From Lentisphaeria bacterium (lineage in GTDB: Bacteria; Verrucomicrobiota; Lentisphaeria; Victivallales; Victivallaceae), in NCBI GenBank assembly GCA_018265615.1, contig JABLYX010000019.1:13165-77164 (forward strand): a stretch of DNA of 64,000 nt. The letters are read 5' to 3'. A program made the translations under genes and the position numbers. Shown here piece by piece: positions 56,494-61,484 of the stretch. The notes beneath the pieces are model-generated. The model ran no database searches. It was given only the letters and a program-made list of their open reading frames with translations, and was not told where the DNA came from. Positions within the stretch are counted from its first letter, which is position 1. Every line of letters starts with the position of its first letter.

Positions 56494-57273
56494 ATGGCGT
56501 TCACGTTCGAACCGGTCGGCTTTGTGAAGTCCGGCGGCGGGAATTATCCGCAGGAGGCGCCGCGCCAGGCCGTATTCGCCCGGAACGAGGGCGTCATCGA
56601 GCTCCTGCCGGGCCGCTGTTTCGAACAGGCGCTCGAGGACCTCGCGGGATTCGAGCGTATCTGGCTCGTCTTCGTCTTCGACCGGAACAGCCGCTGGAAG
56701 CCGAAGGTGCTCCCGCCGGACGGCAGCAGCCGCAAGCGCGGGCTCTTCGCGACCCGTTCGCCGCACCGCCCGAATCCGATCGGAATCTCGGCGGTCGAGC
56801 TGGCCGGAGTCGAAGGCAGGAGGCTCTTCATCCGCAATTTCGACCTGCTCGACGGCACGCCGATCCTCGATATCAAGCCGTACGTTCCGGCAGCGGACGC
56901 ATTCCCCCTGGCGAAAGCCGGGTGGCGCGAAGAAGCGGGCCAGACCGTGCGCGCCGTCACCCTTTCCCCGGAAGCGGCGGCGGCGGCGGCATGGATTCTC
57001 GCCCGCGGCGGGCCGGATCTGGAAAACACCGCGCGCGTCCAGCTCGGCACCCGGGAGCCGGACGCCAGGCGCCAGCGCCTCGAACAGCTCCCGCAGCCGG
57101 GCCGCCGTCTCCTTGCGTTCCGCACCTGGCGCTTCGAATTCGAAGAAAAGGATGAGGCGGTGCATATCCATGCCATCATCTCCGGCTACACGGAGCCTGA
57201 GCTCGCGCCGGACGCGCCGGATCCATACGCCGACAAAGAGCTGCACCGGGCTTTCCGGCTGCGGTTCCCATAA
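56494..57273 (+). CDS. trmO: TsaA/YaeB-family tRNA (adenine37-N6)-methyltransferase
   Basis: Conserved TsaA core (FERIWLVFVFDRN, RSPHRPNPIGISAVEL, GTPILDIKPY). Confidence 0.8.
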   Translation: MAFTFEPVGFVKSGGGNYPQEAPRQAVFARNEGVIELLPGRCFEQALEDLAGFERIWLVFVFDRNSRWKPKVLPPDGSSRKRGLFATRSPHRPNPIGISAVELAGVEGRRLFIRNFDLLDGTPILDIKPYVPAADAFPLAKAGWREEAGQTVRAVTLSPEAAAAAAWILARGGPDLENTARVQLGTREPDARRQRLEQLPQPGRRLLAFRTWRFEFEEKDEAVHIHAIISGYTEPELAPDAPDPYADKELHRAFRLRFP

Positions 57274-57330
57274 AAAACGCCCCGCGAAGCAGACGCTCGG
57301 CGAGGCATTTACGTTCAAAAAGCGGAAAGC

Positions 57331-57906
57331 TTACCAGTTCTCGGCGAGAACCTCGAAGTGAGCCTGCGGATGCGCGCAGGCCGGGCAGACGTTCGGAGCC
57401 TCGAAGCCGACATGCAGATAACCGCAGTTCAGGCAGCGCCAGACGATCTCCTTCGGTTTCTTGAAGACGGTCGAGTTCTTCACATTCTCAAGAAGCGCGC
57501 GGTAACGGCGCTCATGCTGCTTCTCCGCGACGCAGACATGGTCCCACACCGCCGCGATCTCGGGGAAGCCCTCTTTGCGGGCGACTTCCGCGAACGCGGG
57601 ATAGAGGTTGTGCCACTCGTCATATTCGCCGCCGGCGGCTTCGGTCAGGTTCGTCGCCGTGTCGGAGATGATTCCGGCCGGGAAGCTCGCGGTGATTTCG
57701 AGTTCTCCGCCCTCGAGGAACTTGAAGAAGCGCTTCGCGTGCTCCTTCTCCTGGTTCGCGGTCTCTTCGAAGATATTCGCAATCTGGACGAAGCCCTCCT
57801 TGCGGGCGACGCCGGCGAAATAGGTGTAGCGGTTCCGCGCCTGGGATTCCCCGGAAAAGGACTTCAGAAGATTCTTTTCGGTTTCAGTGCCTTTGACGGA
57901 TTTCAT
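57331..57906 (-). CDS. Rubrerythrin
   Basis: Ferritin-like di-iron ExxH motifs (EKEHAKRF, EKQHERRY) plus a C-terminal rubredoxin-like CLNCGY...CPAC. Start set at the internal ATG with a GGAGGA RBS. Confidence 0.85.
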   Translation of the reverse strand: MKSVKGTETEKNLLKSFSGESQARNRYTYFAGVARKEGFVQIANIFEETANQEKEHAKRFFKFLEGGELEITASFPAGIISDTATNLTEAAGGEYDEWHNLYPAFAEVARKEGFPEIAAVWDHVCVAEKQHERRYRALLENVKNSTVFKKPKEIVWRCLNCGYLHVGFEAPNVCPACAHPQAHFEVLAENW

Positions 57907-58043
57907 AATGCATTTTCCTCCATATTGGTGTGCAATCTCATCACCGTGCGGGTCACGGTGCTCCAGCATGCTATACAGTAGCAGGCCTTTCGGAAAAAGT
58001 CAAGCCAACCGCCCCCGAAACTCCGGACGAATGGCGGCATTCC

Positions 58044-58577
58044 TCACTTCCACGCCTCGGAGAACTCGCGTTCACTGAACGCCTCGGCCAGCCCCCCGAT
58101 CTGGGAGAGGCGCAGCACCTCGTCCGGCTCCATGCCGAGGCTGCGGCCGATCTTCGCGTCGTTCCAGTTGCGCCGCTTCAGGTCGAGGATGATTTTACTC
58201 ATCTCCATGATCTGGTGTTTACCGCGGGCGCGGTTGTGCCGGACGGTTGCGGCCATCCGTTCGTTCCGGTCGTCCTCGCCGCGGTTCAGCACGACGCAGG
58301 GCAGATGGGTGAGCCCGAGCTTCCGGCCGACCTTGCTGCGGTGGAAGCCGTCCACGACTTCGAAGCGGCCGTCCTCACGCAGCCAGACCACGATCGGCTG
58401 CGTGAAGCCGTCCTCGCGGATCGAGAGCTCCAGCAGTTCCATTTCAGGAGGCGCCACGACATTCGGATTGTAGTCATTGGCCTCGATCTGCCCGACCGGG
58501 ATCCAGTAGATCCGGATGACCGGGTGCTCGTACGCCCACTCCGGAACCTTTTCGTAGCAACTCAGATCAACTGCCAT
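58044..58577 (-). CDS. ParB/sulfiredoxin-like nuclease-domain protein (IbrB / YbdM-like)
   Basis: 177 aa; ParB N-terminal-domain pattern (...DGFHR...RNRARGKHQI). It overlaps the upstream PAPS-reductase-like gene by 16 nt. Confidence 0.65.
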   Translation of the reverse strand: MAVDLSCYEKVPEWAYEHPVIRIYWIPVGQIEANDYNPNVVAPPEMELLELSIREDGFTQPIVVWLREDGRFEVVDGFHRSKVGRKLGLTHLPCVVLNRGEDDRNERMAATVRHNRARGKHQIMEMSKIILDLKRRNWNDAKIGRSLGMEPDEVLRLSQIGGLAEAFSEREFSEAWK

Positions 58578-59773
58578 AACTTCCTCCTTTGCGCCATGAG
58601 TTCACAATATCGCCGGTACGCCGCGGTCCTGGTCGGGGAGAAACAGAGCGTCCGGCACCAGTAATCGTTTTTGAGCAGGCACTTGCAGATGCGCCGCCAA
58701 CTGGGGACATCCTTCGACCCGGTGTCGCCCTGCTGCTCGTCCGGAATGCCCTCCGGGAACCCTCCTTTCGTGGTCCACCAGCGCAGGTATACTGCGATCT
58801 TGTTGCGGTAATGCTCGGCGGTGTTCCGGGGCATCGATTCAAGCAGCAGCATCGCAAAGCTTTTCCAGGTGTGGTTGTCCGGTTTGGAGATGCGGTAGTT
58901 GCCGAGCACGATCCCCCGCTCACGCGCATAGACCGAACCGAAATTCGCGCCGTTGACCCGGGCGACCATGCGTCCCCAGGTCTCCGGCTCGATGATCTGC
59001 CAGTAGTCGAGGGACTGGCGCTGCTCGTTCCCGAACGGCTCGCAGATCCGCATGCGGCTCAGCGGGACCCCCGCCTGGTAGAAGCGGTCGTAAAGCTTGT
59101 TGTAGATTTTACCGAACTTGCCGCAGTAGGTCCAGATGTCCTCGGTCGTCCAGTCGTAAAGCGGATACGCGTTGCAGAGCACATAGTTGAACAGCGTAGT
59201 CCAGCGCCTCCCCTTGCAGGTCCGTTTGACGCGGCCCGGCGCGACAGTCGCCCAGCGGTTCAGGGATTCGGCGGCGCGGATCCCGACGAAGCAGGCGGCC
59301 TTGCGCTTCCCGGCGTACCAGAAGCCGAATTCGACCACGAACTCCTCGAAAGTCATGCCGGGGACATAGAACGGAAAGTAGCGGCCATCCTTGATCGCGA
59401 TGTCCGGCTTTTTGCGGATCCACTCCTTGCCCTCCTCCCACGAGGTCCACTCCGGCTCGAAGACACTGACCGCATTCACGGTCCGCAGCGGAATGCAGCA
59501 CCAATAGGGCTCGACGACGTCGGAATATTCCTCGAACATCTCCGCGACATGGTCGATGGTCAGCTTATACTGACACTCCCAGTCGATGAAAAGCACTCCG
59601 AACTTCCGGCCGAGCTTCCGCGCGGCTTCCGCGCAAAGGTGGAACATGACGGTGCTGTCTTTCCCGCCGGAAAATGAAAGATAGACCTGAGAAAACTCTT
59701 CAAAAATCCATGCGATCCGGCTGCGGGCACCGACAAGCACATCATAACCGAGATAAGTCTTACCTCTGCCCAT
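58562..59773 (-). CDS. PAPS-reductase-like ATP-pyrophosphatase-family protein with a C-terminal DUF3440-like extension (IbrA / YbdN-like)
   Basis: PP-loop SFSGGKDSTVM near the N-terminus; PAPS reductase fold; ~160-aa C-terminal extension. Confidence 0.7.
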   Translation of the reverse strand: MGRGKTYLGYDVLVGARSRIAWIFEEFSQVYLSFSGGKDSTVMFHLCAEAARKLGRKFGVLFIDWECQYKLTIDHVAEMFEEYSDVVEPYWCCIPLRTVNAVSVFEPEWTSWEEGKEWIRKKPDIAIKDGRYFPFYVPGMTFEEFVVEFGFWYAGKRKAACFVGIRAAESLNRWATVAPGRVKRTCKGRRWTTLFNYVLCNAYPLYDWTTEDIWTYCGKFGKIYNKLYDRFYQAGVPLSRMRICEPFGNEQRQSLDYWQIIEPETWGRMVARVNGANFGSVYARERGIVLGNYRISKPDNHTWKSFAMLLLESMPRNTAEHYRNKIAVYLRWWTTKGGFPEGIPDEQQGDTGSKDVPSWRRICKCLLKNDYWCRTLCFSPTRTAAYRRYCELMAQRRKLWQLI

Positions 59774-59996
59774 TACGGCTCAGTCCCCTCTGTTCACCGA
59801 ATACTGAATACCCCACTCTTCAGTTTCTGCATTTTATTACTTTACCATGAAAAACTTTCCTTTTCAATAATTGCAACGAGTAAATTCATGAAAAAAACAA
59901 CCGGTTCCGCGTAACCATATTCTTTCTCCGCGGTCTTGCATTCCGCCGCAGCGCCCTTATATTAACGCATAACAACATTGACGAACGGAGTTTATC

Positions 59997-61484
59997 ATGT
60001 CGAAAGAATTCAAGAAACTGCTTACGCTGATCTACGAAATCCGCGATCTCGCCGCGGCGCTCGCGCTGCTGGAATGGGACATGCAGACTTACCTCCCATC
60101 CGGCGCCGCCGAGGGGCGCGGCAGGCAGATGGAGGCCCTCGCCGGGGTCATGCACGAAAAGCTCACAAGCCGCGCGTTCGCCGGAGCGCTCGCGGCGCTC
60201 GGCAAAACCGAATTCGAACCGGGCTCGTTCGAAGCGGCGCTGCTGCGCAAGGTCCGGCACGACTATGAGAAGGAACGGAAAATGCCGCCCCGGCTGGTCC
60301 GCGAGCTCGGAGCGGCGAGCTCCGCCGCCTACGGCGCATGGCTTCAGGCGCGCGAGGAGCAGAATTTCGCCCGGTTCGCGCCGAACCTCGAACGTCTGCT
60401 TGAGCTGCGCCGGGAACAGGCCGCCCTGCACGCGCCCGCCGGGCACCCGCTCGATCCGCTGCTGGACGATTACGAGGAGGGGCTGACCGTCGCGGAGATC
60501 GACCCGGTTTTCGCCGTCCTGCGGCGCGAGCAGACCACGCTGGTCCGCGAGGCGGTGAAGCGGGGACAGCCGGACGCGGCGTTCCTCCATGCCGCTTTTC
60601 CGCCGCAGAAGCAGTTGAAGCTCGCAGAGCAGGTCGCACGGAAGATCGGGTACGATTTCACACGCGGACGCATCGACCTGACCGAGCACCCGTTCACGAC
60701 GAGCTTCGGGCTCACGGATGTGCGGATCACGACAAAGGTGTTCCCGCAGCTGCCGCTGTCGTGCCTCTTCAGCACGATCCATGAGGCGGGACATGCGATC
60801 TACGAGCAGGGGATCGACCGGAAATTCGACCGCACGCCGCTGGCGGACGGCGCGTCGCTCGCGTTCCACGAGTCGCAGTCGCGGCTGTGGGAGAACCAGC
60901 TCGGCCGCAGCCTGCCGTTCTGGCGCTGGCTCTACCCCGTCATGCAGAAGAAATTCGCGGGGGAGCTCGGCGGAATCCCGCTTGAAACGTTCTATCGCGC
61001 GATGAACCGGGTCGAGCCGTCGCTGATCCGCATCGAGGCGGATGAAGCGACCTACAATCTGCACATCCTGCTGCGCTATGACCTCGAAAAATCGCTGTTC
61101 GACGGAACACTCTCCGTCGCGGAGCTGCCCGGGGCATGGAACGCGAAGATGAAGGAGTATCTCGGAATCACACCGCCGAACGACCGGCTCGGCGTCCTGC
61201 AGGATGTCCACTGGACCAGCGGCGGCTTCGGCTATTTCCCGACCTACGCGCTCGGAAACCTCATCGCCGCGCAGGTGTGGCAGCTCGCGCACGAAGCGAT
61301 CCCGGGGTTGGACGAGGAGTTCGCGGCAGGAAAATTCGATGCATTCCGCACCTTCCTGCGCGAAAATATTCACAGCTACGGTGCTTCGCTGCCGCCGAAG
61401 GAGCTGCTGCGCCGCCTCACAGGTTCGGACCGGATCAACCCCGCCCCGTTCCTCGCATACCTGCGGAGCAAATACCTCGCCTGA
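59997..61484 (+). CDS. M32-family carboxypeptidase (carboxypeptidase Taq-like)
   Basis: HEAGHAIYE zinc motif; conserved M32 segments (DYEKERKMP, HESQSRLWEN, IRIEADEATYNLHI). Confidence 0.9.
   Translation: MSKEFKKLLTLIYEIRDLAAALALLEWDMQTYLPSGAAEGRGRQMEALAGVMHEKLTSRAFAGALAALGKTEFEPGSFEAALLRKVRHDYEKERKMPPRLVRELGAASSAAYGAWLQAREEQNFARFAPNLERLLELRREQAALHAPAGHPLDPLLDDYEEGLTVAEIDPVFAVLRREQTTLVREAVKRGQPDAAFLHAAFPPQKQLKLAEQVARKIGYDFTRGRIDLTEHPFTTSFGLTDVRITTKVFPQLPLSCLFSTIHEAGHAIYEQGIDRKFDRTPLADGASLAFHESQSRLWENQLGRSLPFWRWLYPVMQKKFAGELGGIPLETFYRAMNRVEPSLIRIEADEATYNLHILLRYDLEKSLFDGTLSVAELPGAWNAKMKEYLGITPPNDRLGVLQDVHWTSGGFGYFPTYALGNLIAAQVWQLAHEAIPGLDEEFAAGKFDAFRTFLRENIHSYGASLPPKELLRRLTGSDRINPAPFLAYLRSKYLA

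Follow-up and report, generated by a model that had tools for sequence, protein, structure and literature searches.

A Victivallaceae orthologue of the Escherichia coli ybdN-ybdM (ibrA-ibrB) operon: a translationally coupled chromosomal gene pair

Results

The stretch of Lentisphaeria bacterium DNA analysed here (the window; 64,000 nucleotides) contains two genes with overlapping reading frames on the minus strand, on which all the features located below also lie. The first gene (58562..59773) encodes a 403-aa IbrA/YbdN orthologue, a PP-loop enzyme of the ATP-pyrophosphatase type with the PAPS-reductase/CysD/FAD-synthase fold and a C-terminal DUF3440 domain, and the second (58044..58577) encodes a 177-aa IbrB/YbdM orthologue in which an N-terminal ParB/Srx-fold domain is followed by a C-terminal helix-turn-helix (HTH). 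A previous sequence-only reading of this DNA had named the pair as ybdN-ybdM/ibrAB, which is correct according to both BLASTP against E. coli K-12 and the Pfam domains, and the two lengths and the 16-nt overlap that it gave agree exactly with the list of open reading frames (common stretch 58562-58577). IbrA is 49% identical to K-12 YbdN over its full length of 403 aa (E=6e-143) and IbrB is 53% identical to YbdM, also over the full length (E=2e-59); because of these identities, we consider the pair to be the orthologue of the known ybdNM/ibrAB module (COG3969 and "IbrB-like"). The RefSeq names of the two genes are 'phosphoadenosine phosphosulfate reductase' and 'IbrB-like domain-containing protein', and the latter is also the NCBI name of a V. 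vadensis protein that is 76% identical to the IbrB of the window. In addition, IbrA matches phrog_2302 (E=1.2e-88), and its top viral fold match, a COG3969 protein, covers all 403 residues.

Each of the domains expected from the initial reading was found in the Pfam search: PAPS_reduct (PF01507) at residues 30-233 of IbrA (E=1.9e-16; 61.0 bits, gathering threshold 22.5), DUF3440 (PF11922) from residue 235 (E=3.2e-41; 141.5 bits, gathering threshold 25), and ParB_N (PF02195) at residues 23-102 of IbrB (E=1.6e-9; 38.1 bits, gathering threshold 26.3). The Pfam E-values for the pair and for the flanking genes are all far beyond chance.

The PP-loop SFSGGKDST, already recognised in that reading, occupies residues 33-41 of IbrA (59651..59677) and is of the canonical ATP-binding type. 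Among 77 homologues, S35 and D39 are invariant and S33, F34, G37, K38 and S40 are each conserved in at least 90% of the sequences, and G36 is nearly invariant among 20 homologues. The loop aligns with 'SIGKDS' of CysD, whereas CysH is degenerate at the same place ('SSSFGIQAA'). The Arg loop GIRAAESLNR (residues 164-173; 59255..59284), a phosphate-binding motif of the PAPS-reductase family, aligns with GLRREQSGSR of CysH and GARRDEEKSR of CysD, and its residues G164, R166, E169, S170 and R173 are invariant. With the canonical SGGKDS PP-loop, the Arg loop and the conserved P-x-x-DW motif, IbrA looks catalytically intact as judged from its sequence; all of the IbrA-family motifs SGGKDS, LFxDxExQ, GxRxxESxxR, MRICxPxG and SWxRxCK are present in the window protein. 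The RICEP motif (residues 242-246; 59036..59050) contains C244, which together with C363 makes up the two conserved cysteines of the family (conserved without exception among 20 sequences and in at least 90% of 77). Because only these two are conserved, no Fe-S site is evident in IbrA, and a four-cysteine Fe-S signature was found in neither alignment. The DUF3440 domain (residues 235-403; 58565..59071) is all-helical, basic (pI 9.7) and rich in Trp, Arg and Lys. The folds closest to IbrA are FAD synthase, CysD and APS reductase; a sequence search of the PDB detected no solved structure of the IbrA or IbrB family, and the literature searched yielded no biochemical characterisation of any family member.

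In IbrB, the DGFHR motif (residues 76-80; 58338..58352) aligns with GERR, the phosphate-binding box of Noc/ParB. D76, G77, F78 and H79 show no variation, R80 is conserved in at least 90% of the sequences, and in the HMMER alignments the G and R of GFHR fall on the G and R of GERR in Noc (7nfu). Thus, of the CTP-binding boxes of ParB, box II is aligned through these two residues and the box III region is outside the detectable alignment, so that NTP binding by IbrB is putative. The almost invariant basic helix RHNRARGKH (residues 113-121; 58215..58241) is specific to the IbrB family and can be equated with box III only as a guess because the similarity in sequence to ParB does not extend as far as this motif. 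The three-helix C-terminal region (residues 123-166; 58080..58211) has a sigma-factor region-4-like HTH fold, after which the chain ends at residue 177, lacking the C-terminal dimerisation domain required by ParB clamps. By this combination of a ParB/Srx fold with a sigma-region-4-like HTH, the protein, which is acidic (pI 5.8), looks like a nucleotide- and DNA-binding protein, the DNA binding being suggested by the fold. A Pfam search with the isolated C-terminal regions (E<=10) returned no HTH or other model beyond DUF3440, and a repeat search detected no operator or parS-like repeats at the locus, just short repeats at chance level.

The initial reading would not have stood if IbrA were an assimilatory CysH or IbrB a plasmid-partition ParB, and neither is the case. 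IbrA has no ECGLH tail (E. coli CysH ends in KRECGLHEG, to which neither the N-domain alignment nor the full IbrA sequence contains a counterpart) and no cys context, and its scores are below the cut-offs of the CysH-type NCBIfam models TIGR02057 (33.1 vs 254.2), PRK02090 (30.5 vs 154), TIGR00434 (28.4 vs 165.1) and TIGR02055 (20.1 vs 235.3). Identity with CysD was rejected as well (34 bits vs 195, 28.3 vs 396.6 and 27.4 vs 413), and there is no cysN, cysC, cysI or cysJ near the pair. The intact PP-loop is shared with CysD, unlike the degenerate one of CysH, whereas an extra insert of ~55 residues and the 170-residue DUF3440 extension distinguish IbrA from both. On the partition model parB_part (TIGR00180), IbrB scores 27.7 bits compared to a cut-off of 58.45, and no parA is adjacent. 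The ParB-family CTPases (ParB/Spo0J, Noc, KorB and VirB) resemble IbrB in the order of N-terminal fold, GxxR box and HTH; however, IbrB has only 177 aa and GFHR in place of GERR, lacks the dimerisation domain and a recognisably conserved box III, and is always partnered by IbrA rather than ParA.

The 223-bp divergent intergenic region common to ibrA and the M32 peptidase gene contains 6 promoter-like sites, compared to 0.9 expected, and holds a candidate sigma-70-type promoter by consensus match (59839..59867; TTGAAA, a 17-nt spacer and TAAAGT, with a TG extension). Read directly from the sequence are a Shine-Dalgarno-like GAGGGGA (59784..59790), 10-16 nt upstream of the ibrA ATG, and the overlap of 16 nt that extends from the ibrB start to the ibrA stop (58562..58577). 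This overlap, combined with an AAGGAGG Shine-Dalgarno sequence for ibrB inside the 3' end of ibrA (58583-58589), implies translational coupling, and the identical 16-nt overlap occurs in 13 of 14 orthologous loci of Victivallaceae as well as in V. vadensis and others. No conserved motif upstream of ibrA emerged from 9-mers shared among 15 Victivallaceae loci, and region 57200-60300 gave no Rfam match at E<=1 and hence no clue to a riboswitch.

Rubrerythrin and M32 peptidase, previously named as the flanking genes, were both identified by Pfam (rubrerythrin, 5.9e-33; M32 carboxypeptidase, 1.1e-168). The description of the flanks as AT-rich applies to the divergent region (GC ~0.41) and to the short downstream spacer, but these are ordinary intergenic DNA and the genes are not AT-rich: GC3 is 0.81 for ibrA and 0.86 for ibrB, compared to 0.75-0.88 for the neighbours. 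The window copy indeed has no obvious partner genes beside it. No mobile or defence genes adjoin the pair in the window or in sister species, and no prophage, genetic island, eib-type target, tRNA gene or rRNA gene is found near it. The surroundings of the pair consist of housekeeping genes that differ between species, and the window ibrA belongs to a monophyletic, all-cellular Victivallaceae clade.

That ibrA and ibrB form a conserved two-gene module, as had been claimed, is borne out by their adjacency in 157 of the 161 loci surveyed, which rules out chance adjacency. A co-oriented ibrB homologue adjoins ibrA in all 81 genomic loci and in 76 of the 80 viral loci, the 4 exceptions being at contig edges. 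Numerous phages and bacteria of many phyla carry the pair: with two strict peptide patterns alone, matches were obtained in 526 species-representative genomes and 495 IMG/VR contigs, and 224 phage records contain the family. Of the 5426 complete E. coli genomes, 5421 contain ybdNM, which accordingly belongs to the core. When 131 neighbour ORFs from 43 non-enterobacterial loci were annotated in bulk with Pfam, no recurrent partner gene was detected, and the commonest family occurred in 4 ORFs.

Phage copies are often located in early or regulatory regions, and homologues in phages are annotated as 'Co-activator of prophage gene expression IbrA/IbrB'. Some of these copies are found beside genes for SF2/SNF2 helicases and Cro-like HTH proteins. 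We downgraded the helicase link, despite two annotated phages, because the association is limited to 3 of the 80 viral loci, with only 20-21% identity to the Streptococcus-phage helicase.

Phage-borne ibr modules also come with a variable third gene, X1 in 46 loci, X2 in 36 and GNAT in 6, in the orders X1-ibrA-ibrB, ibrB-X2-ibrA and ibrB-GNAT-ibrA. All three of these genes are absent from the window. The proteins of the three-gene modules have the same domains as those of the window pair (IbrA 52-59% and IbrB ~51-66% identical); however, these modules come from viral contigs and probable prophages and fall into a mixed clade of their own, whereas that of the window copy is all-cellular.

No fitting defence-system model was found in PADLOC-DB 2.0; there were local matches only, to the PP-loop region of BrxP (25 bits, E=1.2e-6) and to DndC (22 bits, E=1.8e-5), with no partner genes nearby, and IbrB matched the ParB part of MTase_II (33 bits, E=6.9e-9) as well as phrog_498. 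Membership in the Dnd, Ssp or BREX systems was rejected, the scores being far below the model cut-offs and the partner genes being absent.

Discussion

The present results show that the window pair is the Victivallaceae orthologue of the E. coli ybdN-ybdM/ibrA-ibrB operon, self-contained, translationally coupled and equipped with its own promoter region. The similarity to YbdN/YbdM of K-12 (b0602/b0601) encompasses the two-domain architecture of IbrA, the ParB_N and HTH of IbrB, the gene order with overlapping reading frames, and the chromosomal, stably inherited two-gene form without a third gene. The two operons differ in the host phylum (Lentisphaerota vs Pseudomonadota), in the overlap (16 nt vs 29 nt in K-12) and in the N-terminus, which is 32 residues longer in YbdM than in the window IbrB; furthermore, no LysR regulator of the CitR/YbdO type adjoins the window pair, unlike in E. 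coli, where ybdNM is repressed by CitR/YbdO (PMC9068703). In E. coli ECOR-9, ibrAB have been described as co-activators of prophage eib genes (Sandt et al. 2002, J Bacteriol 184:3640, cited in PMC8065619), which is the sole genetic phenotype on record for the family. As the title of that study indicates, the ECOR-9 genes reside on a genetic island and act on prophage genes, whereas the window pair has neither an island, a prophage nor an eib-type target.

We infer, as the most likely mechanism, a nucleotide-dependent adenylating complex that is directed to DNA and influences gene expression. Under this model, IbrA would be an active, ATP-using PP-loop enzyme, not a PAPS reductase, and would cut ATP between the alpha and beta phosphates such that a substrate becomes adenylated, in the manner of CysD, FAD synthase, DndC and TilS. 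IbrB would be its obligatory partner, with the ParB/Srx nucleotide-binding domain and the HTH bringing the complex to DNA, and the two proteins together would perform a nucleotide-dependent reaction on DNA or on a DNA-bound target, altering gene expression. ParB-like proteins that regulate transcription have precedents in KorB and VirB. Such a mechanism would fit the reported activation of prophage eib genes by ibrAB, and a connection to nucleic acids is further hinted at by the basic DUF3440, by the helicase and Cro-like HTH neighbours in phages, and by the repression of ybdNM by CitR/YbdO. Points against the model are the acidity of IbrB and the missing Pfam HTH match, the lack of operator or parS-like repeats and of a conserved upstream motif, the similarity to ParB that stops short of box III, the missing dimerisation domain, the rarity of the helicase association, and neighbour genes that offer no hint of function. 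The window copy itself would be a domesticated, vertically inherited chromosomal version devoid of the phage third gene, given its neighbour-like GC3, the housekeeping contexts that vary between species and the all-cellular monophyletic clade. Taken as a whole, the explanation that combines the orthologue identity, the DNA-targeted complex altering gene expression and the domesticated two-gene status appears to us slightly better than an even bet, with a probability of roughly 0.55.

A more far-reaching proposal, which we put forward only tentatively and with considerable doubt, is that IbrAB perform an undescribed nucleotide-dependent chemistry on DNA or DNA-bound proteins, for example, an ATP-driven adenylylation or an activation with subsequent substitution, guided by the ParB/Srx-HTH protein, and that the system originated as a three-gene phage module that was domesticated in the two-gene form independently in Enterobacterales and Victivallaceae. 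If so, the window copy would represent, in clean and minimal chromosomal form, a new class of regulators acting at the epigenetic or chromatin level.

It is unlikely, in our estimate, that the pair instead activates a small molecule at the expense of nucleotides, with IbrB being akin to the metabolite kinases SbnI and SerK and IbrA adenylating a small molecule like CysD or FAD synthase, so that an activated, PAPS-like metabolite, perhaps connected with the metabolism of sulfur or serine, is made or consumed. SbnI and SerK are ParB/Srx-fold kinases of a free metabolite, and SbnI is also a transcription regulator; IbrB matches the NCBIfam models of both weakly, at ~17-18 bits compared to the family cut-offs of 350-380, and, unlike IbrB, neither these kinases nor sulfiredoxin have a PP-loop partner. 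All the closest folds of IbrA act on small molecules, and one operon variant includes a GNAT acyltransferase between ibrB and ibrA; however, no transporter or biosynthetic gene recurs beside the pair, and its abundance in phages, often in early or regulatory regions, would be odd for a metabolite pathway. The co-induction of cysDNC, cysJI and cysPUWA in an E. coli citR deletion with derepressed ybdN/ybdM, in which flagellar genes are induced as well, is compatible with a role in metabolism but is a correlation only (PMC9068703).

Modification of DNA in phage-host conflict, with IbrA acting like DndC/SspD and IbrB like a DndB/DpdB partner to mark DNA, for example, by thiolation, for protection or self/non-self discrimination, appears less likely still. 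IbrAB share with DndC/DndB, SspD and BrxP the association of a PP-loop enzyme of the PAPS-reductase superfamily with a ParB-superfamily protein and motifs of the DG(Q/F)HR type; IbrB is matched by ParB domains that are fused to DNA methyltransferases, the weak PADLOC matches include BrxP and DndC, and members of the family are found widely among phages and prophages. A comparative-genomics proposal to this effect, invoked in the sequence-only reading, was not found in the literature searched, although the general analogy, with DndB as a ParB-superfamily and DndC as a PAPS-reductase-type protein, is documented and supplies the same domain pairing (PMC12839542). However, IbrA reaches only 15.1 bits on the DndC model TIGR03183 (cut-off 290.4), no DGQHR/DndB model is matched at E<=0.01, an Fe-S site is not evident, and no cysteine desulfurase (DndA), DndD/E, SspA/B/C, restriction gene or PglZ is found nearby, whereas DUF3440, for its part, is specific to the IbrA family. 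Unlike patchy defence islands, ybdNM is core in E. coli and the window copy is host-like in composition amid housekeeping genes. The suggestion of a stand-alone accessory or defence-type module is therefore unsupported, given the host-like GC3, the lack of adjoining mobile or defence genes and of a fitting PADLOC model, and is further opposed by the vertically coherent, all-cellular clade and the core status in E. coli.

It is quite improbable that the pair modifies tRNA or rRNA after the fashion of the PP-loop enzymes TilS, TtuA, NcsA and ThiI, with DUF3440 serving as an RNA-binding domain: the C-terminal domain is indeed basic and rich in aromatic residues, but the RNA-type PP-loop matches are weaker than those to the PAPS-reductase/CysD/FAD-synthase group, the ParB/HTH architecture of the obligatory partner is one typical of DNA-binding proteins, and no tRNA or rRNA genes are nearby. 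Finally, an ordinary assimilatory CysH or CysD that happens to adjoin a partition ParB, as the PAPS_reduct and ParB_N matches and the automatic name 'phosphoadenosine phosphosulfate reductase' might suggest, can be dismissed, considering the CysH, CysD and APS reductase scores of 20-34 bits against cut-offs of 154-413, the missing ECGLH tail and cys neighbours, the insert and the DUF3440 extension, as well as the sub-threshold parB_part score and the lack of an adjacent parA and of a dimerisation domain.

Taken together, these results identify the window pair as an ordinary, stably inherited chromosomal pair that is neither new nor a defence-island element, and that represents neither sulfate assimilation, nor plasmid or chromosome partition, nor a recognised defence system. 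As another copy of a two-gene operon that is widespread and already catalogued, it adds little by itself, and more use can be made of the comparative data collected around it: the two-gene form is found in two cellular lineages, and the three-gene forms, whose third genes are exchangeable, in phages. Phage copies are often labelled by automatic annotation as a sulfur 'auxiliary metabolic gene' (CysH), and the motif and cut-off tests show that this label is wrong. The strict pairing, the ATP-type IbrA, the ParB/Srx and HTH domains of IbrB, and the two- and three-gene forms jointly narrow the range of experiments on function. With ybdN/ybdM being among the E. coli K-12 genes that await a function, and the pair being common across phyla and phages, the relevance of these findings is wider than the present locus.

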